Shown here in pieces: positions 9,227 through 44,981 of a DNA stretch of 64,000 bases. The DNA lies in assembly GCA_016839705.1 (NCBI GenBank), contig JAEOTR010000017.1:1-64000 (forward strand), given 5' to 3'. The stretch comes from Promethearchaeota archaeon (lineage in GTDB: Archaea > Asgardarchaeota > Lokiarchaeia > Sigyniarchaeales > SOKP01). The notes beneath the pieces were generated by a model, which saw nothing but the letters and a program-made list of their open reading frames with translations, was not told the DNA's origin and searched no databases. Each line of letters begins with the position of its first letter. Within the stretch, counting starts at the first letter, position 1. The position numbers were made by a program, and so were the translations under genes.

Positions 9227-9703
9227 TTATTTTTTCAAATCAATCTCATACTCTAAAATGCGCCTAATCCTTCCACGTAAATCCATTCTTATCGCGGACA
9301 TTCCATACGTTGGTATCCCTAGCTTCTCCTGAACTTTCTCAGCACTAAGGGCTTCTGGAAGATCCTGTTTATTCGCAATTGCTATAATTTTTGAACTTAA
9401 ATAACGTGAAAACTTATTGTAGATTTCTTTAGTCTTTTCTATATTTTCTTCGGTTGAATCACAGACTAAAACAGTTAAACCTGCCCCCCTTAGAAAATCT
9501 TGCCACATGAATCTATAGCGTTCTTGACCACCAAAATCCCAGATACTTGTCTTCCTACCGTTGAGAGTAGAATCTTCTATTTCTAATCCAACAGTAGGAT
9601 CTGCTTCTTTTAAAATATCTCTCCCTTGAAGTAAAGACAACAATGAAGACTTACCTACACTACTCAACCCTAAAATACATATTTTTGATTTTGTCGTGAG
9701 AAC
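9227..9703 (-). CDS. Small Ras-superfamily GTPase (Arf/Rab-like); start codon non-canonical and uncertain
   Basis: Frame extends upstream of track start to give KICILGLSSVGKSS (G1), PTVG, WDFGGQERY, NKQD, SA; in-frame TGA at 9719-9721; GTT 9703 proposed. Confidence 0.88.
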   Translation of the reverse strand, partial: VLTTKSKICILGLSSVGKSSLLSLLQGRDILKEADPTVGLEIEDSTLNGRKTSIWDFGGQERYRFMWQDFLRGAGLTVLVCDSTEENIEKTKEIYNKFSRYLSSKIIAIANKQDLPEALSAEKVQEKLGIPTYGMSAIRMDLRGRIRRILEYEIDLKK

Positions 9704-9979
9704 CTTAAATCGACCTTTTCAAATAGAACCTTATTAAGTAGAAAAGACAATTAAAGCTTCAAAAATTCAAATATTATTTACATATCATGAGAATAACTTA
9801 TTAACTTATCAAGAAAAAGCAATTCTCGATTTGATTGGCTGGTAGAAAAAAAATAAATGAAAAAACCATCAAGATTTAATGAGGTGACCTTAAATTAGAT
9901 GAAAAGGGATATATTTTTAAAAAAATAATCAGTTTAAAATAAGGATAAAATAAAATTAGTCAAAAAAAATTGGTATTAT

Positions 9980-11302
9980 TTACTCTTTCTTCTTTACTGC
10001 TGTGGTCCCCGGGTCAATATCCTTTACGATACCTACACAAACGGTTCTACCCATATCTCGCACAGCGAATCTGCCCATTTCTGGAAAATCATTATATTTT
10101 TCAAGGCACATTTTCTTAATTGGTGATAATTCTACAATCGCAGATTCGTTTCTCTTAAGAAACTTAGGAGAATCTTCAATGACGGCACCAGTTTTCTGAT
10201 CTAATTTTTTAAGTAAGGCAATAAATTTAGCAGCCACTTGAGCTGTATGTGCATGAACCACTGGTGTATAGCCTTGTGCAATAGCAGTAGGATGCCAGAT
10301 GACAATGACTTGACCTGTCCATTTTCCATTAGGGTTAATTACAGTAGGAGGATCACTTGGATGACCCATACAATCACCTCTACTAGCATCCGCTAGAGTT
10401 ATTCCCCTTATGCTGAAGCCTACATTATCACCAGGTACAGCTTGAGGTATTTCCTCATGATGCATTTCGATGGATCTAATTTCACCTTGGAAGCCAGTTG
10501 GCATGATAATAATTTTATCATTCTTCTTTAACACTCCTGTTTCAACCCTACCAACAGGAACAACTCCAGTTCCTTTAATTCTGTAAGAATCTTGGATTGG
10601 AACCCTTAGAGGTTTGCCAGTTGGCTTTTCAGGAAGCACAAATTGGTCGATAGCTTCAATTAAAGTAGGTCCATCATACCATGGCATTTTATCGCTTTTT
10701 TTTGACAAGTTTTCCATTGCCATCCCACTTGTAGGGACAAATGGTACATCTTTAAGCTTAAAACCAATATTTTTGAGAAGATCACCGACGGATTCTTTTA
10801 CTTCATTATATCTGTCTTCACTGTATTCATAATTGTCAGCTTTATTTACCGCAACGACGAGTTGTTTTACTCCTAAGGTTTGCGCTAGATATGCATGCTC
10901 ACGTGTTTGTCCATTAGCAGCAACTCCAACTTCCATTTCACCTTTTTTACCAGAAACGACAAGAATCGCAGCATCAGCTTGGCTGGCACCAGTAATCATG
11001 TTCTTAACAAAATCTGCGTGACCTGGTGCGTCAATGATAGTAAAGTAGCGGTTTGGCGTTTCGAACTTTCTAAAGGCTAAATCAATAGTAATTCCGCGTT
11101 GTCGTTCTTCTTTTAATTTGTCAAAGACGAAAGCATAAGACCAAGATTCTCTATCGTACTCCTTAGCGAGTTTTTCCAGCTCTCGAGCTTCTCTTTCGGT
11201 TACTGAACCTGTTTCTATGAGTAAGGCACCCATCATTGTTGATTTTCCGTGATCAATATGGCCAATAATAACCAAATTTAAATGAGGTTTATCGGTTGGC
11301 AT
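9980..11302 (-). CDS. tuf: Translation elongation factor EF-1alpha
   Basis: GHIDHGKST, RGITID, DAPGH, NKAD, GRFAVRDMG. Confidence 0.99.
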   Translation of the reverse strand: MPTDKPHLNLVIIGHIDHGKSTMMGALLIETGSVTEREARELEKLAKEYDRESWSYAFVFDKLKEERQRGITIDLAFRKFETPNRYFTIIDAPGHADFVKNMITGASQADAAILVVSGKKGEMEVGVAANGQTREHAYLAQTLGVKQLVVAVNKADNYEYSEDRYNEVKESVGDLLKNIGFKLKDVPFVPTSGMAMENLSKKSDKMPWYDGPTLIEAIDQFVLPEKPTGKPLRVPIQDSYRIKGTGVVPVGRVETGVLKKNDKIIIMPTGFQGEIRSIEMHHEEIPQAVPGDNVGFSIRGITLADASRGDCMGHPSDPPTVINPNGKWTGQVIVIWHPTAIAQGYTPVVHAHTAQVAAKFIALLKKLDQKTGAVIEDSPKFLKRNESAIVELSPIKKMCLEKYNDFPEMGRFAVRDMGRTVCVGIVKDIDPGTTAVKKKE

Positions 11303-11589
11303 TTTTCATCAATTTCCTCTATTTTCTATAATTTATGTTTTTACTAATATATTTCAAAATAACATTAATTTTTATTAGATGTTAATTGTAAATACGGATG
11401 AGTTTATATTTTTTACGATAATTTAAGTATAACTGAGAGTTTTTGATATATAAGATCAATTTATTGAATGTTTTATACTTCTTCTCTTCACTGTTAGGAA
11501 AAAAATTTGATAATAAAAATAAAAAACTATAGAACTTTAATTAAATTAAACATAAGAAAAAAAAGAAGAAAAAGAAATAATATAATATC

Positions 11590-12411
11590 ATGGTAAAGAA
11601 TCGAGCAAAATTTCCAAAAGAAGGGGAGTTTGTTGTTGCTAAAGTAACAGAGGTTGAGAATCAATATGTTTATGTCGATTTAATTAGCTTTGAGGGGTTA
11701 GATTCTGAGGAAACTGCTAGAGGTATGATTCATATATCAGAGATCAGCTCTAGATGGATAAAGAATATACGGAATTTTGTTCGAATTGGTCAAAGGGTAG
11801 TATTGCGTGTGTTACGAGTGGACCCAATTAAGGGGCACGTAGATTTGTCTTTGAGAAGAGTAAATTCGGCACAGAAAGAAATTCGGTTAAAAGAATGGAA
11901 ATATGCTGTGAAATATGAGAATTTACTACAATTTCTTACAGAGACTGAAGGGATTAATATGACTCTCGATGAAGCATATGATAAAGTTGGCTTCCCTATT
12001 TTAGATTTTTTCGAAAATTATCAAGAAGCTATAGAGAATCTTAAGGAGAACGGAGAAGAATTGCTAAATCAAATAGATGGTATCTCAGATGATACTAAAA
12101 ATGCATTATTGAAAATCGTTGATGAAAATGTACAAGTTTCAACAGTAAGTATATCTGGAAAGGTGAAATTATCGTTTAACTCGGAAAATGGTATAGACAG
12201 AATAAAGGAATCCTTACTAGAAGCCTTAAAAGTTATTGAGCCAAAAGAAACTCGTAAAGTTAGCATTAGTTATATAGCCGCACCATTTTATCGGCTAGAA
12301 GTGATCACTAAAGATTATTTAGATGCTGAAAATATCCTATCTGATACTTTGGAAATTATCGAACAAAAGGCAAACCAATATAATGGTAATTATGAGTTTA
12401 TTCGAGATTAA
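11590..12411 (+). CDS. eif2a: Translation initiation factor aIF-2 alpha
   Basis: FPKEGEFVV, S1 domain HISEISSRWIKNIR, KGHVDLSLRRV, APFYRL. Confidence 0.96.
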   Translation: MVKNRAKFPKEGEFVVAKVTEVENQYVYVDLISFEGLDSEETARGMIHISEISSRWIKNIRNFVRIGQRVVLRVLRVDPIKGHVDLSLRRVNSAQKEIRLKEWKYAVKYENLLQFLTETEGINMTLDEAYDKVGFPILDFFENYQEAIENLKENGEELLNQIDGISDDTKNALLKIVDENVQVSTVSISGKVKLSFNSENGIDRIKESLLEALKVIEPKETRKVSISYIAAPFYRLEVITKDYLDAENILSDTLEIIEQKANQYNGNYEFIRD

Positions 12412-12442
12412 ATTAATTATTATCTGATTTCTACTAGAAAAT

Positions 12443-12628
12443 ATGACTAAATATTTGCAAAAGTGTAAGGTTTGTAACAAATATGGCCTAGCTAATCCCG
12501 ATTCAAAGTGTCGCCATTGTGGAGCGCAGTTAGTTAATCCAAGACCTCCAAAATTTTCATTAATAGATAAATACTGGAAATATCGATTAGAATATTTCAA
12601 AGAAGAGTTTGATGAAAAGTTCAAATAA
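12443..12628 (+). CDS. nop10: H/ACA RNP protein Nop10
   Basis: Zn ribbon plus PPKFSLIDKYWKYR; follows aIF2alpha. Confidence 0.92.
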   Translation: MTKYLQKCKVCNKYGLANPDSKCRHCGAQLVNPRPPKFSLIDKYWKYRLEYFKEEFDEKFK

Positions 12629-12630
12629 CT

Positions 12631-13302
12631 TTATGACACTTCCACTTTTTCGGCGAATTTTTCAAATATAAGGATATTGGCATTCTGGGAAGGGATAAAT
12701 GCAATATCGTCTTTCTCAAACGGACCATAATTTAATAGGTCAATCCCAACTAAGGGTGGTGTTTTCTTTAGAAATCTTAGCATTATGAGATCAATATGCT
12801 CTTTTGGTTCTTCTTCAGTTATTTTCGCTTGAACAGATTCCTTATCTTTAATTAGTATTGCAGATTCTTCAATCTCTCTTGTTTCACTGGATTGCAGATG
12901 CTTTATTTCATCAGTTTTTAAATAATCTTCTTCTTGAAATATAGAAACGGCTTTTACTTTCTCATATCCTTTTATTGAACTAATTAAGTTTTGGTAAAGT
13001 AATTTCTCTGCTTCAATAATATTATTTACTTCAATGTCTTTTAAGGCTAGAGCAAAGTTAGTTATTTTTACTTCTCGTATTTTTAAAAGATCATCAAAAA
13101 GATAATTTAGATTCTGTTTATAGGATTCAAATATTTGAAATCTTAGATTATTTTTTGTATCTTCATGATGGTGATCCATATAATTGAGTATTTTCTTGTA
13201 ACTGTCAAAAATTTCCTGATTTAACACCGTTAATTCCGTTTGCTGAAATTCATTAAGCCAATGTTGGTATAACTTTTCATAATCTCTTTTTAAATCCATC
13301 AA
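12631..13302 (-). CDS. GINS complex subunit (Gins15/Gins51 type)
   Basis: Helical A-domain (LLKIREVKI) and C-terminal B-domain (VGIDLLNYGPFEKDDIAFIP); downstream of priS. Confidence 0.85.
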   Translation of the reverse strand: MMDLKRDYEKLYQHWLNEFQQTELTVLNQEIFDSYKKILNYMDHHHEDTKNNLRFQIFESYKQNLNYLFDDLLKIREVKITNFALALKDIEVNNIIEAEKLLYQNLISSIKGYEKVKAVSIFQEEDYLKTDEIKHLQSSETREIEESAILIKDKESVQAKITEEEPKEHIDLIMLRFLKKTPPLVGIDLLNYGPFEKDDIAFIPSQNANILIFEKFAEKVEVS

Positions 13303-13361
13303 TATCGAATCTGTTCGTTATAATTTTAAAATTACTAACTCATATAAAAATAAGTTTTAAG

Positions 13362-14648
13362 TCATATAGTTTTTGCTACTTCTTTACATAATAAGAAAAT
13401 TGCGACATGGTGAGGAACTTCAATAATATCGCCTTTTGAATAAGGTCCATGCTTTTCTCCCTTTATTTTAGTAACCGGTACTTTCTCTTCTAGGATTTCT
13501 AATTTCTGAGTAGTATGTACCTTACTCTCAAAAACAATTGGATCTAATGATTCCTTTCTCTCATCTAATGGATTGAAATCATCAATTTCATCGGGTAATA
13601 TTTCTTGAACTTTAAATCCTGTTTTTCCATGGAGGGAACCAGGATATCTGATAAGTCTATGAATATCTACGGTAACAGGAATATCAATTTCTACTCCCAG
13701 TTCATGAACTACTCCTGTGAAGAATTTTTTCCAATTAGTCATTCCAAAGCCTTCAATTGAAGGTAAAATAAATCTATTAGTTTCTTTAATCTTGGTAAGA
13801 AAATCTTGTTTGGAATTTATAAAACTCTTAATGTAACTATTGTTTAAATTGAATTTCTCATTATTTGACAAATAATTTTTTATATCTGCATCAGGTTTAT
13901 TTAATATTTCTTCAGTTTTTCGTAAGATTTTTTGAGCCCAACCAATAGTATCTTGTGAAAAACGATAAAAAGTCCCACTTCTAGTTTGTAATCCTAATAT
14001 TTCAAATGAAACATTTTCTCCTGTAATATAATCGGCAAGTTCTCTTCTTTCGTCGGAAGAAAGAGTTCTTATTTTGTCATTTTCAATTTTCAAATGATAT
14101 CCACGATGTCCTGAAAATGCAATTCTTATTTGATTTAGTTCAATTGCAAAATCTGGAATTAGAAAATCATAGATTAATTTGATTATTTCATATTTGGCTA
14201 TATCTAAACATTTCTCGCAGATCCAAGTTAAAGTTTTAAATTTTGATTTGTGGCAACTTGGGCAACGATCCACTATTCCATTTCCGCTTTCTCCACATTC
14301 TTTGCAATACCAAAAGTCGTGATCTTCTTTACAAGGTGTATAGAAGTGGTCCGCATCAATGTCAATGATTAAATCACAACCCTTGAAACCTTTTCCAGAC
14401 ATGTCTTGATTTTCTGGTTGGAAATAAAGTGCTCCACTTGAATATACATGTCGAGGTCCATTACTAAACAAATTTTTCATCAGGTTTTCCCTACTTGAAA
14501 AATTCATGTGTCTTATCATTCTAATTTGCTTGTCCCATGGAATAAATCCAAATTCTCTCTCATTAAAGGAGTTTATTAATGGTAAATTTTTTCTATTTTC
14601 TCTATAGTATTCCTTAAATAGCCGATTTAGATATTGAATATCATTCAT
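13362..14648 (-). CDS. priS: DNA primase catalytic subunit PriS
   Basis: REFGF, DLIIDIDAD, FSGHRGYH, IDIPVTVDIHRLIRYPGSLHGKTG; start set at ATG 14648 overlapping priL stop. Confidence 0.96.
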   Translation of the reverse strand: MNDIQYLNRLFKEYYRENRKNLPLINSFNEREFGFIPWDKQIRMIRHMNFSSRENLMKNLFSNGPRHVYSSGALYFQPENQDMSGKGFKGCDLIIDIDADHFYTPCKEDHDFWYCKECGESGNGIVDRCPSCHKSKFKTLTWICEKCLDIAKYEIIKLIYDFLIPDFAIELNQIRIAFSGHRGYHLKIENDKIRTLSSDERRELADYITGENVSFEILGLQTRSGTFYRFSQDTIGWAQKILRKTEEILNKPDADIKNYLSNNEKFNLNNSYIKSFINSKQDFLTKIKETNRFILPSIEGFGMTNWKKFFTGVVHELGVEIDIPVTVDIHRLIRYPGSLHGKTGFKVQEILPDEIDDFNPLDERKESLDPIVFESKVHTTQKLEILEEKVPVTKIKGEKHGPYSKGDIIEVPHHVAIFLLCKEVAKTI

Positions 14649-15822
14649 TATTAGATTTTTGATTACTTTCTTCAATTTTTTTTTTCATTGTGGAAACAAA
14701 TTGGGTAAATTGAACGTAAAAAAGAGGATGCGAAATTTTCTTTTGCTCATCATATTTCTTAGAGAAATAACCTTTTATACATAATTCATCTTTATATTTT
14801 TTCGCCATACATAAAGTATAGGATTTTAGAGTTTTGCATGAGTAAGGAGTATAACCTTTTTTAATTGCATATCTAACTTGATATCCAGTTCTATCTCTAT
14901 CAAAGTCAGGAAGAGTCGAAAATAGGTTTATAATGTCTTCTTCGGGATATTTTAAAGCGTTTAAAAACCAGACAATAAATAAACGCTCTGTATGAATTAA
15001 ATTTTGTCCTTCTTTTATTTTAGCAAGAATTTCTTGAATACATGGAGGTAAATATTTACTAAGGTCTTGATCTTTCCTAAAACCCATTTCAAAAGAATAT
15101 TCAAATTCTTCTTTTTTCTCCTCCCACTTTTCACTAATTTTTTCATATAGATCGCGAAATATTTGATTTTTTAATAACTCCTCTCTTAAATCTTCAATAT
15201 TGATTTGATTCAGAAATTTAATTCTTACATATTCTTGAATTAACCTATTGAGATCATCAGGTTGAATAAATACATAACCGTTATTTAATGAATTATTGAC
15301 TAATTTACGATAATTGTCCCTCAGATTAGAAGCGAGCTTCAAATAGTCAATAAAATGGATTCGAAATTTAGTTCTAAGATTTAAACCTTGATCCTTTACC
15401 TTAATTTTTTTGTAGATTACTGGTTCCTCAGAATAAACAATATCAAAATTTAAATCTTTATAAATATAATATAGATTAAAATCACTATTTATATCTTTAT
15501 TTAAGCTCTTGTAAGTGATTTTTGAATACAATTCGGCAATTTTGTTTGCAATTTGTTTGTTGTTCAAAATACTTAAAAAAATCTTTATTACTAAATAGAA
15601 ATCAATATTTATCTCATCATCCATAAAAAAAGAGAAATCCTCAATTTTGTTAAAAGAAGCTTTAAAAAACTCCAGGATTCTTTCTTTTATCTTATTGCCG
15701 TTATCAGATGAGAATACTTCATTTATAAAATCTATAGGTCCCTTTAAAGCTTTATTGGGGTAATATTTCTTTAGAGATGGAAGCCAAGGATAACGTTTAA
15801 CTAAGTTGAAAATCTCGCTCAT
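14641..15822 (-). CDS. priL: DNA primase large subunit PriL
   Basis: YPWL, KLVN..LNNGYV, LPPCI, HTERL, PDFD, YTPYSC..LC Fe-S domain. Confidence 0.94.
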   Translation of the reverse strand: MSEIFNLVKRYPWLPSLKKYYPNKALKGPIDFINEVFSSDNGNKIKERILEFFKASFNKIEDFSFFMDDEINIDFYLVIKIFLSILNNKQIANKIAELYSKITYKSLNKDINSDFNLYYIYKDLNFDIVYSEEPVIYKKIKVKDQGLNLRTKFRIHFIDYLKLASNLRDNYRKLVNNSLNNGYVFIQPDDLNRLIQEYVRIKFLNQINIEDLREELLKNQIFRDLYEKISEKWEEKKEEFEYSFEMGFRKDQDLSKYLPPCIQEILAKIKEGQNLIHTERLFIVWFLNALKYPEEDIINLFSTLPDFDRDRTGYQVRYAIKKGYTPYSCKTLKSYTLCMAKKYKDELCIKGYFSKKYDEQKKISHPLFYVQFTQFVSTMKKKIEESNQKSNNE

Positions 15823-15974
15823 TATTCAAAAATTTCCCATTTCTAATGATTTTTATTTTGCTTCTAAAAGATTTGATGGTCTTAAGCTTTAATAGATAAA
15901 GAGTAAAATGGTTTATTGATAATTTTAATAAATCTATTAACAAACTAATAAACTATATTTAAAGAAAGAGTTGA

Positions 15975-16778
15975 TTAAAATTCATCCATATCGTCTTCGT
16001 CTCCGAATTCCTCTTCTTCGACACGAGGTGCAAGGAAATAGCTTAGTTTCCCACCTTCAAGAAGATCAAAATTCATTTTTAACGGATGATCTGTTTTAAG
16101 GGATATTTCTAATTTTTCTGTGATAGAGGCTATCTTTAGTATTGCTTTTAGGAATGTTAACGAATATGCCCCACTACTTGAACCTTGAAGTTGACTTTCA
16201 ATCAAATCATCTTCATTGAGGTCATATACCATTTCACCAATTTGTCCAGAGGAGCTAAAGACAAGACCTTGTCCTTCATTTGCGTTTATGTTGAGGATTT
16301 CTGAGTAAATTTCCGCGTCTTTTATTGCTTCAACCAAGAAATCTGTATCTATTACCCACTTTGAAGGATAATCTATTTTGAGTAAATTATCCATTGGGAT
16401 TTCTTCGATGTCAATATCTAATAATGCTAAGCTAAATGTCCTGGTTCTAGATACACCCTCCCTTTGCATTTTAATTTTTATCTTTTGGTCAGCCTCATTA
16501 AAATCTATTTCAACTGTGTCATTGGCAGCACTTCTTTTTAAGATTTTATCTAGATCATCTAAATTTAATCCAACTTTCGATTCTGTACTACATTCATATT
16601 CATCAAAATTATCCTTCTTAATGGATAATTTCAGAAGACAGATTCTACTTGGATCCATCGCTGAAATAGTAAACTCTTTAGGAGTGACTCGAAATTCCGT
16701 TTCATCAATGATGCTGGCAAGAGTTTCAACAATTCCTTTTAATATCCGACTATTTTCTAATTTTAACGTGAAGCTCAT
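15975..16778 (-). CDS. pcn: DNA sliding clamp PCNA
   Basis: AMDPSRICL, YSLTFL, YFLAPRVE; acidic C-terminal tail. Confidence 0.97.
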   Translation of the reverse strand: MSFTLKLENSRILKGIVETLASIIDETEFRVTPKEFTISAMDPSRICLLKLSIKKDNFDEYECSTESKVGLNLDDLDKILKRSAANDTVEIDFNEADQKIKIKMQREGVSRTRTFSLALLDIDIEEIPMDNLLKIDYPSKWVIDTDFLVEAIKDAEIYSEILNINANEGQGLVFSSSGQIGEMVYDLNEDDLIESQLQGSSSGAYSLTFLKAILKIASITEKLEISLKTDHPLKMNFDLLEGGKLSYFLAPRVEEEEFGDEDDMDEF

Positions 16779-16955
16779 ATTCTTTCAGTATTTTTATGCT
16801 ATTATAATTAAGATAATAAAGTTTTATTGGCATTATTAATAATATTTAATATTAGTCTTTTAATAAAACCAACTCTGTGTATTAAATTAATTATTTATAC
16901 TTATCTTAAATTTCAATGATTATTACTGAAATAAATCGAACTGTTTATTAAAAAA

Positions 16956-17273
16956 ATGCCATTACAATCTGCGAAACAAAGAATGATTAAAAATCTCAAA
17001 AATGAGGATGAGAGGGTTCAAATCACTGGATATGTAAGGGAACTCGTTGAAGAAGAACAATTTGTTTTAGATGATGATACGGGGAAAATTGGTGTTGATA
17101 TTAAAAATATTGATTTTAAGTTTAAGGAAAATGATTTGATTAACGTTATTGGTAATCTTGTTAAAGAAGATGATGAAATAAAAATGTTTAAAGCTGAAAT
17201 TATCCAAGACAAGAACCAATTAAATTTTGAATATTATAAGAAATTATATGAACTTAAAAAAAAATACGGATGA
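16956..17273 (+). CDS. Single OB-fold protein, RPA3/RPA14-like
   Basis: RVQITGYV, FVLDDDTGKI, INVIG, AEIIQD plus C-terminal helix; divergent from PCNA. Confidence 0.75.
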   Translation: MPLQSAKQRMIKNLKNEDERVQITGYVRELVEEEQFVLDDDTGKIGVDIKNIDFKFKENDLINVIGNLVKEDDEIKMFKAEIIQDKNQLNFEYYKKLYELKKKYG

Positions 17274-17303
17274 GTTTGTAAAGAAGAATATAGGTGGTAT
17301 CAA

Positions 17304-17636
17304 ATAGTACAATTTTGCCCTAAGTGTTCCAATCTTTTACGCAGAAAAAAAGAGAATGGGAAGCCATATCTTGTATGTATGTGTGGATATCAAGAGGGAT
17401 ATGACTCGCTTATCGATGAAAAAAGTATTAATAAGAAAAAGGAAGCTTTAAAAAGAAATCTAATAATTGTAAAGAAAGATGATAAGATTTCAGTGCTTCC
17501 TAAAGTAAAAACGAGTTGTCCTAAATGCAGTCATAATGAAGCAGAAACCTGGCAAACTCAAATTAGAAGCTCAGATGAACCAGCTACTCATTTTTTTAGA
17601 TGTGTCAAATGTAAACATACGTGGCGTCAGGGATAA
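17304..17636 (+). CDS. tfs: Transcription factor S (TFS/RpoM family), ATA start
   Basis: N-terminal ribbon QFCPKCSNLL lies upstream of track start; C-terminal CPKC...QIRSSDEP..FFRCVKC; GGTGGT then ATA at 17304. Confidence 0.93.
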   Translation: MVQFCPKCSNLLRRKKENGKPYLVCMCGYQEGYDSLIDEKSINKKKEALKRNLIIVKKDDKISVLPKVKTSCPKCSHNEAETWQTQIRSSDEPATHFFRCVKCKHTWRQG

Positions 17637-17762
17637 AAACAGTTTACATAAGGAATTAAATAAATATTTAATATGTATATCTAGTTATATTTACGTGAAA
17701 GAACAGTTTCACGATCTTTATAAGATTTATTTTAAAACTTAATCGATATTGGTGATTGAATT

Positions 17763-18245: not shown

Positions 18246-18249
18246 ATGT

Positions 18250-18456
18250 TTAGGAGAGAACTTCTAAGATTTTTGTAAGAATTCTTGCTTTTCCGCCTGT
18301 AGATTGAAGTAACGTTTTTCCACAGACTAAACATTGCACATCTGTTCCCGAGCATCCAAAAACTATTTGCTGGTTTCCACAATTTAAACACTTCACACGA
18401 AGAAATCTACTTTTTGGATGTGGAATAAGAACTTTTGATTTTTCATTTCTTGCCAT
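18250..18456 (-). CDS. rps27e: 30S ribosomal protein S27e
   Basis: [20 protein letters not shown]...CLVCG...TGGKA. Confidence 0.97.
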
Positions 18457-18478
18457 ATTAATATTTCCCTATTTTTAG

Positions 18479-35799: not shown

Positions 35800-35822
35800 G
35801 CAATTTCATGTTGCTCAACTAT

Positions 35823-35853: not shown

Positions 35854-35904
35854 ATAATTATAAAAAGATATTCAGATCAGATTATTTTCGAGGAAGGATT
35901 TAAT

Positions 35905-36729: not shown

Positions 36730-36782
36730 TTTAAAATAATTTAGTAGGGAATGTAAAATTTATAGATAAACAAGTTAAATTG

Positions 36783-38441
36783 TTATTTTTTCTTCTTTTC
36801 CATTCGTTTCTTTAATGCAGTTGATGATATTCTTGCTCTTTTTTGACCTTTAGCGGCCCAAAAGCTTGATACGGGAGCTTGAGCTACTTCTCTTTCTTCC
36901 AATTCAATTTCTTCTAACTCATCTTCTAAATATGATAATCCCTCTGTAAAATCTTGTTCAGCAAATGTCCTGTTATTCGATTTTAATGATTTCATTTCAT
37001 TTAGAAGTTCAGCTCTCAAGGTTGTCAACTGTACTTTTGATTCTTGAGCTTTCCCAGAATAATATCCTCCCCCAGCAATTTGGATATTCTTCATGACATT
37101 AAATTTCTGATTATATTTAGATTTGAAATCATCCTCATCTTTAGTAACCCCAATCCTGTCGTTAATAACTCTCATCCTTTTATTTCCTTTCTTATCTAAG
37201 TACTCCACTTGTAGCTGTACAGGCACTTCTTCTTGTTCTTCTAATTCTTTAGCAGATTCTAATTCTAGAAATAATTCTCTATCTTCTGTAATTGCACCTA
37301 GAGTTATTTCTGATCCTTCTATCGCTCCTTTAGAGCTGTAAGCTCCAGATATGCTTTTAATTATAATTCGTGGTGGGACAATAACTCTTACTTTTACATC
37401 CCTCCCAATATACTCTTTTTGTCTAAGTTCGGAGAAAATTGCCTCCATCTCTTCACTTGAAATTAAATATAATGTCCCGCCTGTCGTATCAGTTAGTTTC
37501 CCCAATACTTGAAGTCCCATTTCATTATTATCACCTGAAGCAGACACCCCTACAACATCAACTATGATTTTATATTGATTACATGAATCAGCCATATCTT
37601 CATAAAACTTATTTGCTCCAGGACTTGTTCCTGATAAATTTCCAATCCCTTGATTGGCTAAACCGTCGGTTAAAAGAGTTATTCTTCCTGTTGAATTGAA
37701 AAATCCGAATGAAATAATGGCAAAATATAAAGCAGGCCCAAGTGCAGTCATATCCATTGATCTAAGGTCTTCGACTTTTTTGATCCAACCATCTGCGAAT
37801 TCACCAATAGAACCCAGAAATTTTTCTTTCTTTATTGCTTTTTTAAATTGAGACTTCATCCCTTCCAAAGTAAAGAGTATATCTCCACTAAAATTAATTG
37901 GATCTTTATCATGTCTTAAGTAATAGTACACAGTACTTTCAAAAGCTACCAAGATATATTTAGTTGTTGGTGAATTTATTTTAAAATCTTTTAGAGTTTG
38001 AATTAATGATTTTTTCACAGCTTCAATTTTAGCACCACTCATGCTTCCAGAGATATCAATAACTGAAATATACAAATCACCTTCAGTTTTAGATACCTTC
38101 ATTATTTCTGTTTCTTCTTTAGGTTTTTTCGCTTCTAAAGCTGATAGTAAATAATCAACATCATTTGGTAATTTTTTTGTTAATTTAGACTTATCTACGG
38201 AATTATCAGTTCCACAGAACTCGCATATATAGTAGGCACCTTTTTGAGGATCTTCTTTAATCATATCTACATCAGTAAAAACCGCGCCACAATTTTTACA
38301 TTTTATTGGCTCATCCTTTATTTCCCTCTTAGGGTTCCCTAATTCTTTAAAAGTTATTGAGTATAGATAAGGATATAACTCTTTTTTTGAAGGCTTTTTA
38401 GCGAGGAACTTGTTAAATGCTCTATCAAACATAGGTTTCAT
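36783..38441 (-). CDS. Sec23/Sec24-like protein: C4 Zn finger + vWA trunk + beta-sandwich
   Basis: CKNCGA...ICEFCGTDN; DISGS, TALGPAL, LTDGLANQGIG, TGG; IGRDVKVRV. Confidence 0.8.
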   Translation of the reverse strand: MKPMFDRAFNKFLAKKPSKKELYPYLYSITFKELGNPKREIKDEPIKCKNCGAVFTDVDMIKEDPQKGAYYICEFCGTDNSVDKSKLTKKLPNDVDYLLSALEAKKPKEETEIMKVSKTEGDLYISVIDISGSMSGAKIEAVKKSLIQTLKDFKINSPTTKYILVAFESTVYYYLRHDKDPINFSGDILFTLEGMKSQFKKAIKKEKFLGSIGEFADGWIKKVEDLRSMDMTALGPALYFAIISFGFFNSTGRITLLTDGLANQGIGNLSGTSPGANKFYEDMADSCNQYKIIVDVVGVSASGDNNEMGLQVLGKLTDTTGGTLYLISSEEMEAIFSELRQKEYIGRDVKVRVIVPPRIIIKSISGAYSSKGAIEGSEITLGAITEDRELFLELESAKELEEQEEVPVQLQVEYLDKKGNKRMRVINDRIGVTKDEDDFKSKYNQKFNVMKNIQIAGGGYYSGKAQESKVQLTTLRAELLNEMKSLKSNNRTFAEQDFTEGLSYLEDELEEIELEEREVAQAPVSSFWAAKGQKRARISSTALKKRMEKKKK

Positions 38442-38524
38442 AAATTGAATTTTGAGAATGTAATAAAAACTGAATTATAAAAAATTATGGTTAATTTTTT
38501 AAAAAATTAAAAAAAAACCTTTAT

Positions 38525-38594
38525 CCCGTGCCCCTTGCTGAGGTGTCTTCGGTCATCTCGCTTTTAATATGCCCGAATCATTCTTTATTGGGAT
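38525..38594 (-). promoter_or_regulatory. Eukaryote-type SECIS element overlapping the stop codon
   Basis: AUGA(38581-38578)-UUCGGGCAUAUU-AAAAGC-GAGAUGACCGAA-GA(38547-38546); UUCGG/CCGAA and CAU/AUG pairing; GC-rich patch in AT-rich DNA. Confidence 0.85.
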
Positions 38595-39108
38595 TTTTAA
38601 TATTTTCATCTATAATTGATATCATCATTTCAATCGATGGTCGGTCTGTTTTATCTTTCCCAATATATTTCCATATAATTCTTCCTTCCTTGTTGATTAG
38701 AAATTTACTGGGGACAGCTTGTTTGATGTTTATTTTTTTTCCTGCACCTGGAGCAAACCAGTATACATCATACTCCTTTGCTATTTTTGCACCACGATCA
38801 GAGATTATATCAACAGTAAATTTATTTTCTTCTTTAAATTTCCTGAGAAGTCTAATACTGTCACTAGCTATCGATAAAAGTTTTATTCTTCGCTTTTTGA
38901 ATTTTGATAAATGCTCTGTTAGTAATGTCAAATGTTTTTTACAGTGAGTTCACCAATTCCCTCGGAAAAAATCTATTAATACGCCGTTAAATTCGTTGAG
39001 GAATTTACTTAAATTAATGGGATTATCATAGATATCCACTGTGTTTATTTGAGGTGCTTCTCTGTTTGTACTTATTCCTTTAGGTCTAGGTGGTTCATCA
39101 GCATTCAT
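38578..39108 (-). CDS. Peroxiredoxin-like (AhpC/TSA) selenoprotein, UxxC, 176 aa
   Basis: Track ORFs 38950..39213 and 38578..38931 are one frame joined by TGA 38952-38950: FFRGNW-U-THC, matching RGxWCxxC; SD..IAKEY, PSKFLINKEG. Confidence 0.92.
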
Positions 39109-39199
39109 AATATTTAATTTAGTCCTATTAGATTTAAATAATATTATTATAATATGTAAAGAGTTGATGAAAATGAGAAATTTCTTTTCTTTACGTTTC

Positions 39200-39718
39200 T
39201 CAATACTTTTCAAAAAGATTTTCAGTCATAATATTGAATGCTCTTTCAACATTTTCCCCAGTTTTTGAAGATAACTCAATAAAATTAGAGAGGTTGTATT
39301 TTTTAGCAGCTAAAATGCCATCTTCTCTCGGGACTGCACGGAATTGATCTAAATCTTTTTTTGATCCAATTAGCATTATTGGGATGTCTCCAGCCTGTTC
39401 TCTTACAATTTGTGTCCAATCCGGCAAATGATCGATACTTCTCACATTTGTAATATCATAAAGAAAAAATGCTCCATTTGCTCCTTTACAATATTGAGAA
39501 AGGAGAAATCTAAATCTTTCTTCACCCCCAAAATCCCACATTTGCAATTTTACTTTTTTTCCATTGAAAAGAGTTGTTTTAGAATAAAAATCTACGCCAA
39601 TTGTTAATTTCAAATCCTGCATGAAGTATCCAGAAATATATCTTAAGGTGAGGGACGTTTTCCCGACAGATGCATCTCCCAACATCATCAATTTAAATGT
39701 ATAATCGTAATCTGTCAT
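39200..39718 (-). CDS. Rab-like small GTPase
   Basis: YDYTFKLMMLGDASVGKT, TIGVDF, WDFGGEERF, GSKKD, SSKTGENV. Confidence 0.95.
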   Translation of the reverse strand: MTDYDYTFKLMMLGDASVGKTSLTLRYISGYFMQDLKLTIGVDFYSKTTLFNGKKVKLQMWDFGGEERFRFLLSQYCKGANGAFFLYDITNVRSIDHLPDWTQIVREQAGDIPIMLIGSKKDLDQFRAVPREDGILAAKKYNLSNFIELSSKTGENVERAFNIMTENLFEKY

Positions 39719-39870
39719 TCTTTTCTTTACACTGAATATATTTGAAATTTTTCTCGGGTTTAAGGGATAAGAATTTTTAATAATGTAATTTTAAACTTAA
39801 GATATTAATAAACCTAGTATTAATTAATTTTTGTTTAATTTAAAAGTTATATTTCGAGTACATTGAATAA

Positions 39871-40506
39871 TCATAATAATAAAACCAGAATATTAAAGCA
39901 AGAATGTGCCACAGAGCATGGAATTAATGAATAATTAAAATATAAAAAAGTAAGAGCTAATAATACTCCTAAGATAAAATAATAACCAAAAAAAGTTAGT
40001 ATCGTAGTAACAGGTACTATAATAGGAGGAACATGATAGAACGCAAAAAGAACCGAAGAGATTATGACACCATAAACTACCTTTGTTTTGACCTGTAACT
40101 TCTTAATGATAAATACTCGAAAGAATGCTTCTTCACAAGGACCAATAATAATTATTTGCAATATTATTAGAATTGATAATTGGATTACATCGGGTTGTAC
40201 TGGGGTAGTATTTATCGCCCCTTCTTGTCCCTGTTCAATGAATCCACTACCAAACAAATTTTCTACGATTACATTTCTAAAGAATATTATTAGAAAGCTT
40301 CCTAAAAAGAAAAGTAAGATGCCAATACTTATTCCTGCAATGATTTTAATGATTAATTCTTCATTTTTTTGGAATCCCATTTCAGAAAGTAATTTTTTGA
40401 ATTTCTTTTTTTCAATTTTACTTGAAATAAGTGCAGGAATAAAAACCAGAAGTGTTTCAAGGAATATTAGAGTTATTAAAAACCAAGGATTTTCTCCTAG
40501 CTGCAT
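39871..40506 (-). CDS. CPBP/Abi (Rce1-like) intramembrane glutamic protease
   Basis: EEAFFR, FAFYH, AHSCFN motifs intact. Confidence 0.9.
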   Translation of the reverse strand: MQLGENPWFLITLIFLETLLVFIPALISSKIEKKKFKKLLSEMGFQKNEELIIKIIAGISIGILLFFLGSFLIIFFRNVIVENLFGSGFIEQGQEGAINTTPVQPDVIQLSILIILQIIIIGPCEEAFFRVFIIKKLQVKTKVVYGVIISSVLFAFYHVPPIIVPVTTILTFFGYYFILGVLLALTFLYFNYSLIPCSVAHSCFNILVLLL

Positions 40507-40594
40507 TATTTAATTCCTTATGATTTAATTTGGCAAATCAAAAAATTAAATATCTCATTACTATTATTATTATCTCTTTCTCTCACTTCTTTTA

Positions 40595-41875
40595 ATGACA
40601 GTAAGAGAAAATTCAATTGAAATTAAGAGTAAGAAATTAGAATTATCTGACAATGAAAGAGGAGTATTGGATACTAAAGGAGTTACAAGAGAGCAGCTCT
40701 TACTAAAAAACTTAAAAATTATAGCAAAAGATTATCTTGATGTTGAAGAAATAAAGAAATCATTATCAAGAATTATTTTGAAAAATATAAATGAGTTGGA
40801 TTTTAGTAGTTTTAAAAAATTTCCTAGATTTTATATTAAGGAAGACTCAATAAAAAAATCTCTGACCCCCTCAAATATAAGAGGTTTAAATGTTGTTAGT
40901 GTAGATGGAAGTTCAGTAACAAAAAAATTTATGAACGTAGATTTTTCTTTTTTAAAAGCTATTGCTGTAAAATATTACTTTCATCAAAACTATGTGGCGA
41001 ATATTAAACACTTTCCAGATCTAGCTGGTTTTAATAACTATATTGTCGAGGGCAACTTTCTTAATCAGGATGAAACTGCTGTCGATGTTAAGACATCAAT
41101 CGATATGAGATGTATGGAAATTAATTTACTTAATGATTTAATTGAAAGATCAAATGATATAGATTTGATTATTATTGATGGTTCAATTGTGATTACACCA
41201 ATAAACCTGCTATTCTCTAAAGATGCTGAAATATCGAAAAAATATGATATTTTGCTGAAGGAATATCACAAATTATATTTGAATTGTAAGGAGAAGAATA
41301 TAATTTTAATAGGTTCTATAAAGGATACTCGAACTTCTGCTTTATCTAACCTTTTGTGTGGTGCTATACAATTATTAATGCCGAGTTATTCAAATTTAAG
41401 CGACTTTATTAAGATTAATTATAGGCAAGTTTTTAAATATTTCTCCGACATTGATTTATTTAATAGATTATTAAAAAAAACTGAAAGAAGTTGCATTTTC
41501 TATTGTAAAAGAGAAATCGATAAGATAAGGGATACGGGAATAAAGAAAGAAATTTCCTATTATTTTCCACTAGCTTTTTATGCATTCTATCTAAAGACCA
41601 CTAAATTTGACACACCTTGTAGAATTGAATTTTTTATGGATGAGACCCATTCAATTGAAAAAGCGTCTAAAAAAGCAGATTTGATTTCTTCAATACTCTT
41701 GCCGATTTCAAGTTTAAACGAGTATTATGGATTACCAATACCTCAAATCGAAGCCCACAAACGTGCTGTATTTAAGCCAAATGAAGTTGAGCTATTATTA
41801 AATAATTTGACAAGAACCTTTAATTTGTACGGTGTTTCTTTATTGGAAAAAAGAAGAAATCGAAGACCTTTTTAG
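40595..41875 (+). CDS. nurA: NurA-family nuclease
   Basis: VSVDGS, IIIDGS, IGSIKD, RIEF, GLPIPQIEAHKRA. Confidence 0.88.
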   Translation: MTVRENSIEIKSKKLELSDNERGVLDTKGVTREQLLLKNLKIIAKDYLDVEEIKKSLSRIILKNINELDFSSFKKFPRFYIKEDSIKKSLTPSNIRGLNVVSVDGSSVTKKFMNVDFSFLKAIAVKYYFHQNYVANIKHFPDLAGFNNYIVEGNFLNQDETAVDVKTSIDMRCMEINLLNDLIERSNDIDLIIIDGSIVITPINLLFSKDAEISKKYDILLKEYHKLYLNCKEKNIILIGSIKDTRTSALSNLLCGAIQLLMPSYSNLSDFIKINYRQVFKYFSDIDLFNRLLKKTERSCIFYCKREIDKIRDTGIKKEISYYFPLAFYAFYLKTTKFDTPCRIEFFMDETHSIEKASKKADLISSILLPISSLNEYYGLPIPQIEAHKRAVFKPNEVELLLNNLTRTFNLYGVSLLEKRRNRRPF

Positions 41876-41877
41876 CC

Positions 41878-42549
41878 TTAAATAACCTTTATCCTGTTTA
41901 ATAATATGTCCTCGAAGAATATGTGTTTTTTTTCTACTATCTCATTTTCAAATCCGAGCTCATTAATTTGTTTATTTAATTCATCTAAATTTGTCCTATT
42001 TGAACTGATGAAATAGATATAATGAGCTTTTTTAAAATTTAGAAAAATTCTGGCTTCCTTAATAAAGTCAATAATTATTTCATAACCCTTAATCCCTCCA
42101 TTCCAACTATGATCAATCTTCTTTTCATTTTTGTTCTCATTGACTAAAGATGAGGAGGGTAAGTATGGGGGATTAAAAATTATAATATTAAATGAGGATT
42201 TTAGGTATTCTGGAAAATTTTTAAACAAATCTGACTGAAGGAAGACAATTTCATTATTGAAATTGTTTAAGATTTCATTTTTTTTGGCACACATAATTGC
42301 ATCATCTAGGATATCGGAAGCGAATATTTTTGGATTAAAATTTTTGTTTTTTAACTTAAGATAATGAAGGAAAATTGCAATTATCCCGGTTCCTGTTCCT
42401 AAATCTAAAATATATTCAATCTCATTTACATTTATCCCATCAAAATAGCTATTATTAAAAGATTTTGAAAAATAATCAATTATAAGATAAGTATCATCCG
42501 ATGGAAAGTAAATATCCTCAGAATTGCATTCAATTATAGGATCAGATAT
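41878..42549 (-). CDS. HemK2/PrmC-type N5-glutamine methyltransferase, ATA start
   Basis: Open frame 85 codons beyond track start: IYFPSDDTYL, LDLGTGTG, then FNPPYLP; ATA 42549 with in-frame TAA just upstream. Confidence 0.92.
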   Translation of the reverse strand: MSDPIIECNSEDIYFPSDDTYLIIDYFSKSFNNSYFDGINVNEIEYILDLGTGTGIIAIFLHYLKLKNKNFNPKIFASDILDDAIMCAKKNEILNNFNNEIVFLQSDLFKNFPEYLKSSFNIIIFNPPYLPSSSLVNENKNEKKIDHSWNGGIKGYEIIIDFIKEARIFLNFKKAHYIYFISSNRTNLDELNKQINELGFENEIVEKKHIFFEDILLNRIKVI

Positions 42550-42574
42550 TTGTTATCACATCATTGTATTGAGT

Positions 42575-43411
42575 TTAAAGGTAAAACAATCTACTAATTT
42601 CAATAATTTCATCGTTATTAAAGGTAGATACTCTTTTATTTTCATAACCACTTCTGCTCAAAATCTGGAGAATTATATCTTTTGTATAATAATTATTCTT
42701 TATCGCTTTGTAATAAAAAAATAACGCATTGGCTATATTTTTACCTTTATAAGGCATGATTCCCGCAATAAATTTTAAAAAATAGTTCCTAGAATTTATA
42801 TCTACCAAAAAGGGGTTTAAACTTTCATGGGGAATAATTTTTATTAGAAGTAGATCGATTTTTGGAATAGGATAAAAACTGTTTCGTGGTATATTAGATT
42901 TGGAGATTGGCTTCATAAACGCATTTAGAGTCACACTTATTCTTGAGAAGTCTTTGTAATCTTCTGATAAAAAAATGCGGTTTCCTATACTTTTTTCAAT
43001 AGTTAATATTCCTGAAGGAGGATTTTCTTTGAAAAATACTTTTTCTAATATAGGACCTGTTATTGTGTAAGGTAAATTCGAGATAACCTTATCATGCTTA
43101 GGAAGGCTGACTTCTAAAATATCACCATTAATAACTTCAATATTATTATAGATAGAGAAGACTTCTGAGAGGTATCGGCTCAACTTAGGATCAATTTCAA
43201 CTGCATATATTTTTTTTACTTTTTCCACTAAGAATTCAGTTAAAGCTCCTAATCCAGGTCCTATTTCTAAAATGATTTCTTCTCTGGAAATTTCAGATGT
43301 GGTAATTACTTTTCTTACAATGTTTTTATCGGTCAGAAAGTTTTGTCCTAAATGCTTTTTAGGCTTTAAATTCAATCGTTTTAGAGTTAGTAGGACATCT
43401 TTATAATTCAT
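42575..43411 (-). CDS. rsmA: 16S rRNA dimethyladenosine transferase KsgA/Dim1
   Basis: KHLGQNFL, LEIGPGLG, SNLPY, FYPIPKID. Confidence 0.96.
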   Translation of the reverse strand: MNYKDVLLTLKRLNLKPKKHLGQNFLTDKNIVRKVITTSEISREEIILEIGPGLGALTEFLVEKVKKIYAVEIDPKLSRYLSEVFSIYNNIEVINGDILEVSLPKHDKVISNLPYTITGPILEKVFFKENPPSGILTIEKSIGNRIFLSEDYKDFSRISVTLNAFMKPISKSNIPRNSFYPIPKIDLLLIKIIPHESLNPFLVDINSRNYFLKFIAGIMPYKGKNIANALFFYYKAIKNNYYTKDIILQILSRSGYENKRVSTFNNDEIIEISRLFYL

Positions 43412-43416
43412 TTGAT

Positions 43417-44067
43417 CTATTCATATTTTTGCGTTTTACTAAAAAGATAGTATTTTACATCTCGTTGAAGTTCTTTGATGATTCTTTGAGCAATAAGTTT
43501 GGTTGGAGATGAGATACTCGTTCTATCGGAAATATCTTGAAATGTTACAAATTTTTGCCTTTCTCTTGTTTCAAGGATTTCCCACATATGCTTTTGACCA
43601 ATTCCAGGTAAGAGTTTCAGAGCATGCATTCTAGGGGTTATTGAGGTGGAATTATTAAAAAAATTGATGAATTCTTCTTCATAATTTAAAACCTCTTTTT
43701 CAAGAATAGGCTGAATCAATGCTTTAGAAGTGCTAGTAAGCTCTTTGTAATCAATCTTTTTTAAAACATCTCGTAATTTATCCTCGTTTACAAATTCTTC
43801 ATAAGTTTTATGTTCTTGAACTTGAATATCAGAGTTTTTATTTAGCTTCACTTCATAGAGTACGAAATCAGGAAAAGTAAGAACTTGTGCAATTGGTGTT
43901 TTGGCCCAGCTTGGTTTATCTTCTTCGAGATGCCCATGTATTAAAAGATCTAATATAACTACCTCTCGAAATTTCTTTATAAACTGCTTTTTCTTTCTGG
44001 GACCATTTCGATAACCTCTTCTTCGAGGTGGACCTCTGTATCGATCTCTTCTTTCCATCATTACCAA
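43417..44067 (-). CDS. DUF655 putative RNA-binding protein
   Basis: PIAQ, FFN..ITPRMHALKLLPGIG, KYYLF; between rpoF and ksgA. Confidence 0.9.
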   Translation of the reverse strand: MVMMERRDRYRGPPRRRGYRNGPRKKKQFIKKFREVVILDLLIHGHLEEDKPSWAKTPIAQVLTFPDFVLYEVKLNKNSDIQVQEHKTYEEFVNEDKLRDVLKKIDYKELTSTSKALIQPILEKEVLNYEEEFINFFNNSTSITPRMHALKLLPGIGQKHMWEILETRERQKFVTFQDISDRTSISSPTKLIAQRIIKELQRDVKYYLFSKTQKYE

Positions 44068-44187
44068 TATTTATGTTATTTACTTTTCCGTGAACCATCT
44101 TACAATTTAATTGTTGATATACTACTCAATGATTTAGGGTAGCACATTAGAATTTAAAACAATTTAGACTTATAAATTCTTCGTAAT

Positions 44188-44553
44188 TTAAGATGATTTA
44201 ATATCTTCTAGTTCTTCTAATATTACTTCTAATTGCTTATCTGAAAACGTCTTCCCGGCGAAAGACTTCTCGAAAATAATTCTAAGCTCTGGAACTGATT
44301 CTGGATTAATATTAATAACATTAATTGCATAAATTTCTTCAATATCATACTTCTCCATAAGAAAATCTTTCACTTTTCTCGCTGTTTTAGTATCCATTTT
44401 CGCAAATTTATTTACATAATTATATGTAATTTCTTGAAAGTGTGACATTCCTTCTTCAGTATCAATTTCTTCCATTTGTTCTTTTACATATTCCATAATT
44501 TCTTTGACTTCTGGAATTGATACTGCTCGTTCATCTTTTTTACGTCCCGACAT
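44188..44553 (-). CDS. rpoF: RNA polymerase subunit Rpo4/RpoF
   Basis: VSIPEVK, YVNKFAK, NINPESVPELRII; synteny. Confidence 0.92.
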   Translation of the reverse strand: MSGRKKDERAVSIPEVKEIMEYVKEQMEEIDTEEGMSHFQEITYNYVNKFAKMDTKTARKVKDFLMEKYDIEEIYAINVININPESVPELRIIFEKSFAGKTFSDKQLEVILEELEDIKSS

Positions 44554-44583
44554 GATAAATCTATTGTTTTTTTTTTTAACACT

Positions 44584-44889
44584 TTATTTTACAGAAGTAG
44601 GATTTAATCTCAAATGCTCTCGACCAATTATTAGGGTTTTATTAGATTTTCCTAATTTAACATCAACTAAGTAGCAACGCCCTCTTTCCCCAATGATTGT
44701 ACCCGTCTTACCATAGTACCTTCGGTGAGGAAGTCCACGCTTATGAACTGATGGATTTCCTATGATGTCGACTTTGTCAGAAATATTGTAATCAATTAAA
44801 AATTTTTCAATTGATCCAAGCCCTCTCTTTCTAACTTTCTTTCGATAAAGTTTCCGTGTCTTATTTCTATAACCTTTATGGATTGTAAT
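44584..44889 (-). CDS. rpl21e: 50S ribosomal protein L21e, ATT start (absent from ORF track)
   Basis: Manual translation HKGYRNKTRKL...DKVDI.GNPSVHKRGLPHRRYYGKTG...GRCY...REHL; in-frame TAA 44904-44902; start ATT 44892 or 44889. Confidence 0.96.
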   Translation of the reverse strand: MTIHKGYRNKTRKLYRKKVRKRGLGSIEKFLIDYNISDKVDIIGNPSVHKRGLPHRRYYGKTGTIIGERGRCYLVDVKLGKSNKTLIIGREHLRLNPTSVK

Positions 44890-44981
44890 AATCGAACACC
44901 ATTAAATTTGTAATGAGTGGATTTATGAATAATAACTTATTTATTTTTTGATTTTAGATTGATGAAATACATCTTTTTATT

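Follow-up and report, generated by a model that had tools for sequence, protein, structure and literature searches.

Probable initiation at AUA, AUU and AUC codons on conserved genes of a Loki-type Asgard archaeon

Introduction

Initiator codons other than AUG, GUG and UUG are familiar as a set: NCBI translation table 11 lists ATT, ATC, ATA and CTG as alternative initiators, and the AUN starts of the mitochondrial and Mycoplasma type draw on the same codons. Mitochondria have a tRNA-Met with f5C34 and no Shine-Dalgarno (SD) sequences. In this report we describe conserved genes of a Loki-type Asgard archaeon that lack a canonical start, defined throughout as ATG, GTG or TTG, and that would be translated instead from ATH codons (ATA, ATT or ATC) or, in one case, probably from GTT. 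Four of them, encoding transcription factor S (TFS), a HemK2/MTQ2-type methyltransferase, ribosomal protein L21e and an Arf-family small GTPase, lie in the stretch of 64,000 nt that we call the window, which is positions 1-64000 of contig C88 in a genome assembly (G000) of 3.36 Mb and 31% G+C.

The bacterial infC gene, which encodes IF3, has an AUU start with translational autocontrol, and E. coli pcnB likewise has AUU; the aIF1 of S. solfataricus has been reported to discriminate against AUU (PMC4705826). In eukaryotes, eIF1 and eIF5 are autoregulated through a weak initiation context, according to Ivanov 2010 and Loughran 2012 as these are cited in PMC4705826. For archaea, reviews give AUG, GUG and UUG as the start codons (PMC7531240). 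Ribosome profiling in Haloferax volcanii placed about 30% of the putative alternative initiation sites at near-cognate codons (PMC7261190), so that archaeal ribosomes can pause or start there. Our literature search found no paper on ATH starts in Asgard archaea, nor any description for archaea of such starts at the frequency and with the conservation reported below.

Materials and methods

The letters of each site are those of the assembly sequence, including base 17306 of the TFS gene and the AAA run at 42550-42552 ahead of the HemK2 gene. Stop-to-stop frames of the window were used to locate the first canonical codon of each gene. Relatives were searched in 40 genomes, 24 from the same genus and 16 from three other families of the order, and their start regions were read and tabulated per species, with the outgroup genera labelled g2, g5, g9, g10 and g11. 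The initiator tRNA gene was located by a pattern search, as ARAGORN listed only 12-18 tRNAs and no initiator.

For the genome-wide screen, G000 was compared with the congener G022 (2.0 of 2.27 Mb) in all stop-to-stop frames. Antisense and out-of-frame shadow ORFs (open reading frames), together with conserved AT-rich leaders, dominated an initial orthologue comparison, and a shadow filter was added; removal of the shadow frames left 1200 ortholog pairs. A gene was scored as a strong case when conservation of its N-terminus extends at least 8 codons upstream of the first canonical codon. We also added a class, "shared downstream canonical start", which hides true cases such as the GTPase, and the frequency given below is therefore conservative on that side. 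A second count considered only those columns that are aligned to a canonical start of the partner.

Results

Four genes of the window without a canonical start codon

The original prediction, made from the window sequence, held that four intact conserved genes have no ATG, GTG or TTG between the upstream in-frame stop and their first essential motif. Every site was present as described: GGTGGT and then ATA 17304 for TFS, GTGA and then ATA 42549 for HemK2, GGTG and then ATT ATT at 44892/44889 for L21e, and an SD-like motif followed by GTT 9703 for the GTPase. These are 4 of the 51 orthologue-supported genes of the window, and in each the first canonical codon falls inside or beyond essential parts of the protein. 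In alignments with relatives all four codons sit on the start column of the orthologues, and in matches to Pfam and NCBIfam profiles the family models are covered from their first positions only with the proposed starts. The 3' end of the 16S rRNA reads GGATCACCTCCT, and among ATG starts with an SD of at least 5 nt, the distance that separates the G of GGTG from the start codon has its optimum at 7 nt; each of the four window sites carries an SD motif at this aligned spacing.

The L21e gene (44584..44889, minus strand) lies in a frame, 44584-44901, in which no ATG, GTG or TTG would give a product of at least 40 aa. Its product matches PF01157 at 96.5 bits (gathering 27), with residues 4-94 on model positions 4-97 of 101. 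The SD core GGTG (44897..44900) is followed at 4 nt by ATT 44892-44890 and at 7 nt by ATT 44889-44887, and we favour the latter as the putative start because of its 7-nt spacing and its position on the start column in relatives. That column, read in 23 species of the genus, holds ATA in 10, ATT in 5, ATC in 5, TTG in 2 and CTG in 1, and in relatives AGGTGT plus 6 nt precedes the ATH codon. Since an in-frame stop stands directly before AGGTGT in many species, 18 of the 23 are left without any canonical codon between that stop and the HxGYR motif. In seven outgroup genomes from other families, the column is ATG or TTG. From these alignments it is highly likely that L21e starts at the ATH column. 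The NCBI records from related metagenome-assembled genomes (MAGs) begin exactly there (MVKHRGYR..., MTLHKGYR...), whereas the JGI records from related MAGs are 83-85 aa long and are cut at an internal V. Thus, the expectation that gene callers would damage or miss L21e was borne out in the JGI records but does not extend to every caller, as public full-length versions exist.

The TFS gene (17304..17636 including the stop codon, plus strand) occupies a frame, 17274-17636, that is opened by TGA 17271-17273. Its SD motif is AGGTGGT (17292..17298), of which AGGTG occupies 17292-17296, and the G of GGTG lies 7 nt from the putative start ATA 17304-17306, which is itself 30 nt downstream of the preceding gene's stop. 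The first canonical codon, at 17379, falls within the N-terminal zinc ribbon, and a start there would remove the ribbon. From the ATA, the product is a full-length match to TIGR01384 TFS_arch (73.3 bits, cut-off 64.75; residues 3-109 on model positions 1-99 of 101), with both zinc ribbons and the acidic loop present, and it belongs to that family by the model's own cut-off. Elsewhere in the genus the start codon is ATG without exception (19 of 19 species), so that 1 of 20 species lacks a canonical start before the essential part and the ATA of G000 is private to this species; the outgroup starts that were read are ATG, and GTG in one. Relatives that all carry ATG, which would speak against the prediction, were found for TFS only and not for L21e, the GTPase or HemK2, and for TFS they point to a recent ATG-to-ATA change in this species rather than to an error in the general idea. 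Initiation of TFS at ATA 17304 is, in our judgement, very likely.

The HemK2/MTQ2-type methyltransferase gene (41878..42549, minus strand) has a frame of 41878-42552, in which TAA 42555-42553 is followed by CAA and then by the putative start ATA 42549-42547, located 25 nt downstream of the preceding gene's stop. The first canonical start is 86 codons in (42294), and two in-frame ATGs farther upstream are separated from the gene by TGA TAA. The product scores 102.1 bits against TIGR00537 (hemK_rel_arch; cut-off 87) with its NPPY motif intact, which places it above the curated cut-off as a predicted methyltransferase of this type. The SD-like sequence GATGTGAT (42555..42562) includes GTGAT at 42559-42555, at an aligned spacing of 7 nt to the ATA; the GTG of this element is out of frame with the gene, and in G000 the element is more plausible as a binding site than as a start codon. 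At the column that precedes the D-P motif by 5 codons, 4 species have ATG and 15 have ATH, and 3 of 22 species have no canonical start at all (G004, with TCG at the column, G021 and G000). We consider ATA 42549 the likely start of this gene.

The Arf-family small GTPase gene (9227..9703, minus strand) is the least certain of the four. Its frame spans 9227-9718 behind TGA 9721-9719, and the first canonical codon, TTG 9667, is within the P-loop. The product matches PF00025 Arf at 78.1 bits (gathering 22.3, E 7e-22), and the P-loop GLSSVGKS is present. The probable start, GTT 9703-9701, stands 7 nt (aligned) after the SD-like AGGTCGAT (9709..9716), which is conserved in 24 of 24 species, reads AGGTTGAT in relatives, and would pair with the 16S end via one bulged base. 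In the 24 species the start column is GTT in 22, GTA in 1 and ATT in 1, and it aligns with the ATG of outgroup genus g5; 22 of the 24 have no canonical codon before the K-I-C anchor, and all have an in-frame stop 2-3 codons upstream of the column, inside or just after the SD. The stretch AGAAAAGGTTGA TTTAAA GTT is conserved genus-wide. Between GTT and the P-loop the codons vary synonymously, and upstream of GTT they include stops and frame-breaking indels. On this evidence, we lean toward GTT 9703 as the start. Also, about 50 nt upstream of the GTT (9704-9760, minus strand) are conserved as nucleotides in 24 of 24 species, with the motif AAGGTTnnATTT repeated and the frame not kept; this segment could belong to a promoter or a leader, or could act as a regulatory RNA or as a binding site for a protein.

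The aIF1 gene and the initiation apparatus

The gene for aIF1 (PF01253, NF002096), a protein that is about 90% identical across the genus, has ATT as its start codon in 22 of 22 readable species of the genus, and in none of them a canonical start. No other affected gene gives so clear a case. All 22 share the leader TAA AGG TTG TGA TAA GAG AGT ATT AAA GAC GAC GAC ATT TGT, in which TGA TAA stands in frame two codons upstream of the ATT, and no canonical codon occurs before the zinc knuckle. In other genera, the same column holds ATA (g5, perhaps g10), GTG (g11) or TTG (g2, g9), and never ATG. Hence, alignment of orthologous starts across the relatives bore out a lineage-wide non-canonical start, which L21e, the GTPase and aIF1 keep in 22-24 species.

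We observed a single initiator tRNA gene (C76:9715-9842), with anticodon CAT, an A1-U72 pair, three G-C pairs in the anticodon stem, and an intron of 48 nt after position 37; its exons are identical in G022. No second initiator tRNA gene was found in the genome. A gene for tRNA-Sec was detected by ARAGORN. Loop 1 of aIF1 (RRKWGR) gives a gap-free alignment with KRRFGK of M. jannaschii, and the outgroups share it. Given the normal initiator tRNA and the shared loop 1, nothing in the genes points to a new decoding device; the inspection of these two components gave no genus-specific change, and the relaxed start selection that had been proposed for the lineage keeps its standing as a deduction.

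Frequency of non-canonical starts in two genomes

The screen of G000 against G022 yielded strong cases in 62 G000 genes and 42 G022 genes, or 53 and 40 once internally aligned partners were dropped. About 10 of the 53 G000 cases have other causes (selenocysteine (Sec) sites, an in-frame TAA, three shadow ORFs). By this measure roughly 3% of genes (range 2-5%) require a non-canonical start in both genomes, so that the phenomenon predicted from the window extends beyond it in two genomes of the genus. Among canonical starts genome-wide, ATG still predominates with 74%, and TTG, which had been described as common in the window, accounts for 17% of them.

The affected genes are well-conserved core genes by Pfam and NCBIfam. 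In G000, they include by Pfam aIF1/SUI1, S26e, L34e, an L7Ae-family protein, V-ATPase subunit D, a MoxR ATPase and its DUF58/VWA partner, an Eco57I-type methylase, NifU, a Roadblock protein, another small GTPase and XPD. The XPD/Rad3 helicase gene lies just beyond the window (C88:64265-66235, minus strand), with AGGTG followed at 6 nt by ATA; a canonical start is first reached 65 codons into the gene, and its N-terminus is conserved in G022, which likewise lacks a canonical start. For S26e, most species have an open frame of 93 aa. In the case of an MGMT-like protein, GAGGTG is followed at 7 nt by GTT, and G022 has ATH. The latter genome also shows the same kind of species-specific ATG-to-ATH changes as G000.

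In the second count, a canonical codon was lacking, both at the column and upstream of it, for 47 of the 649 G000 columns and 51 of the 616 G022 columns. ATH accounted for 23 of these in G000 and 18 in G022, that is, for 41 of 98 (42%) versus 10% in codon usage; the binomial p for the excess, 2e-14, was computed against an assumed 11.5% before usage was measured. An SD of at least 5 nt at a distance of 5-10 nt preceded 10 of the 41 ATH columns (24%), compared with 3.4% of internal ATH codons (p 9e-7) and with 12% of canonical starts, half the ATH figure (nominal p 0.03). When at least 4 nt were required, the proportion was 18 of 41 (44%) for ATH columns and 6 of 57 for non-ATH columns (p 2.5e-4). 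It follows that the notion of SD-guided start selection describes all four window sites, which are at optimal spacing, but genome-wide it describes only 24-44% of ATH starts, enriched though these are. After ATH, the commonest codons opposite a partner's canonical start, among columns with no canonical codon to use, were TTA (8 per genome) and GTT (5 in G022), the majority of them lacking an SD. TTA, AAA and other such codons were rarely accompanied by an SD (the 6 of 57 above) and were not counted as starts.

As an outgroup control, 400 kb of G032, a genome that also has 31% G+C, gave 0 strong cases in 142 pairs, in which G000 itself had 3 of 142, a difference that is not significant, and none of the borderline G032 cases among the 142 pairs was convincing. 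Long pre-start regions made up 1.0% in G032 against 3.0-3.8% (p 0.09). Since G032 is equally AT-rich and its long pre-start regions are rarer by a factor of three, AT richness alone seems not to be enough, small as this control is.

Other features encountered

A truncated cold-shock-domain (csp) ORF of 40 aa (46515..46637, plus strand), which the original prediction listed as a remnant, does open with ATA. It is 50% identical to the syntenic csp orthologue of G022, with the ATA aligned to the G022 ATG, but the ORF ends early and its AGGT is badly spaced, with only 2 nt to the ATA; three other csp genes are present elsewhere in G000. It is probably a decaying copy, and being truncated and divergent it says little on start codons.

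Other anomalies came to notice as well. An EF-2-family GTPase paralogue (C82:10996-13280, locus L260) has an in-frame TAA (C82:11193-11195) between its P-loop part (...HIDHGKTT...QMTDSDLD) and the rest (DLLDLLKDEEQARGITI...); the same TAA is found in G022, and both halves are conserved, so this could be programmed readthrough or a split gene. In two AIR-synthase/SelD-like genes of G000 contig C5 (minus-strand frames 19067 and 20406) the conserved part comes directly after a stop and begins (S/N)-C-K; these stops are likely selenocysteine (TGA) sites. In the purA orthologue of G022 (contig C1, minus frame 107951-109256), the frame changes near the N-terminus, with ATG AGT AAG... in another frame and, after it, an odd stretch some 40 nt long; a frameshift, an inserted segment or faulty assembly could account for the change in this predicted adenylosuccinate synthetase gene.

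Discussion

We infer that initiation takes place at the near-cognate codons of these genes. The genes are very probably intact and translated from AUA, AUU or AUC, with GUU probably serving the GTPase. In the mechanism we envisage, the SD duplex with the 16S 3' end would place the near-cognate codon in the P site about 7 nt downstream, where the ordinary initiator tRNA (anticodon CAU) would read AUA, AUU, AUC and, for the GTPase, probably GUU. Anchoring by the SD would offset the codon mismatch, with an efficiency below that of AUG, and these starts would thus be the weaker ones; perhaps coupling to the upstream gene also helps. Ordinary near-cognate pairing combined with SD anchoring is the simplest reading of the sequences. 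That non-canonical starts are a trait of the whole genus is supported by the alignments, in which the starts of L21e, S26e, the GTPase and aIF1 have the appearance of old, conserved ones; those of TFS, and probably of HemK2, are recent ATG-to-ATA changes in an AT-rich genome.

Several observations weigh against initiation at near-cognate codons. Two of the three bases of GUU do not match the CAU anticodon, and to our knowledge GUU is not an established start codon. Most of the HemK2 relatives with ATH at the start column have an in-frame GTG or TTG three codons upstream, inside GTGAT, so that the start of those relatives is ambiguous. Also, no more than between one quarter and one half of the putative ATH starts have a recognizable SD, and a scan for enrichment of SD-anchored codons over all pre-start codons of the genome gave no signal; codons of any kind have a 5-mer SD in 3% of cases, and the pre-start codons are mostly non-coding. 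Finally, the outgroup control is thin, consisting of 400 kb of one genome.

The cases confined to G000 (the ATA of TFS, the frame offset of HemK2, the ATA of the csp piece) might instead reflect mistakes in sequencing or assembly, or recent mutations that inactivate the genes, and would then not be functional starts. TFS is indeed ATG in every other congener searched, the csp piece is truncated as well, and one A less in the AAA run 42550-42552 would bring GTG 42559 into frame with HemK2, giving M-I-T-I-S-D-P, near the M-I-T-I-K-F-V-P-D-P of G018. Yet the rest of both TFS and HemK2 is intact and conserved, from the zinc ribbons and acidic loop of the one to the NPPY of the other; each has an SD at exactly 7 nt; G022 has undergone species-specific changes of its own; and a canonical HemK2 start is missing from G004 and G021 too. 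Only 9 of 1200 G000 genes look internally broken. ORFs of more than 1000 codons are intact, so random base errors, which would have to reach percent level to hit about 3% of starts, are no explanation. We therefore regard error or inactivation as improbable. Much less probable still is translation from the first downstream ATG, GTG or TTG, with shorter proteins and an upstream conservation that is non-coding. Gene callers usually assume such a start, JGI records for L21e of 83-85 aa exist, and some upstream conservation in AT-rich DNA did prove non-coding (genes on C9 and C11, and C73:53537). With a downstream start, however, TFS would lose half of its zinc ribbon, HemK2 would lose 86 residues, and the GTPase would lack strand beta-1 and the first glycine of its P-loop; of L21e and aIF1 almost nothing would be left. 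The family models align from position 1-4 only with the ATH start, and the synonymous variation of the GTPase codons from GTT to the P-loop, next to upstream codons that include stops, likewise argues for coding from the GTT onward.

Recoding, in which an upstream canonical start would be followed by stop readthrough or a frame change, can be imagined from candidates just upstream of the genes (ATG ATG TGA TAA before HemK2, ATG 44902 in another frame before L21e, TGA before the GTPase), in a genome that uses Sec, as its tRNA-Sec indicates, and that has an EF-2 paralogue with a conserved in-frame TAA. We consider it the least probable of the alternatives, as the upstream frames are not conserved between species (indels, extra stops), two adjacent stops precede both HemK2 and aIF1, and the upstream "ORFs" are of 2-8 codons and overlap the SD. 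A changed decoding apparatus that reads AUH as a full start, through a second initiator tRNA, a modified C34 or an altered aIF1, ranks only slightly below sequence error and is unlikely too. Modified C34 is exemplified by f5C in mitochondria and by agmatidine in tRNA-Ile2; a base modification would be invisible in DNA, and a frequency of about 3% is far above that of typical prokaryotes. On the other side are the single initiator tRNA gene with its CAT anticodon, the continued predominance of ATG among canonical starts, and an aIF1 loop 1 that is common to outgroup genera which have ATG or TTG on the same genes. Near-cognate pairing by the ordinary initiator tRNA, aided by the SD, accordingly stays the preferred explanation.

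Among the closest of the systems described earlier is infC, in that a near-cognate AUU stands behind an SD on the gene of a factor that rejects such codons, which here is aIF1. By analogy, the AUU on the gene of aIF1 itself would provide an infC-like feedback on start-codon stringency. However, aIF1 has the SUI1 fold and is unrelated to IF3. The likeness to eIF1 lies in the factor, since eIF1 and aIF1 are orthologous and both have a weak start site on their own mRNA; the difference is that eukaryotes weaken the Kozak context of an AUG, whereas here the codon itself is near-cognate and led by an SD. A couple of E. coli genes have such starts, versus about 3% of genes here. In contrast to mitochondria, the initiator tRNA gene is standard and SD sequences are frequent. 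Also, the extra sites in Haloferax were set aside as possible false positives, and they are not the sole starts of conserved core genes. A broader proposition, which we put forward only tentatively, is that the genus may run initiation at lowered third-base stringency, with aIF1, made from its fixed AUU, setting the expression of the roughly 3% of genes with AUH starts (L21e, S26e and L34e among them), and with even GUU serving the GTPase.

It should be noted that gene finders limited to ATG, GTG and TTG truncate or drop core genes (L21e, S26e, L34e, aIF1, TFS, XPD) in these genomes, and that comparative work on Asgard archaea can thereby come to list genes as absent, or proteins as shortened, in error. 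Bacterial, archaeal and eukaryotic initiation have in start-codon stringency one of their main differences, and the Asgard archaea are the closest known relatives of eukaryotes. If near-cognate starts do serve about 3% of the genes, and one of them is kept on the homologue of eIF1, then feedback on stringency of the eIF1 type would predate the eukaryotes and would be testable in archaea.

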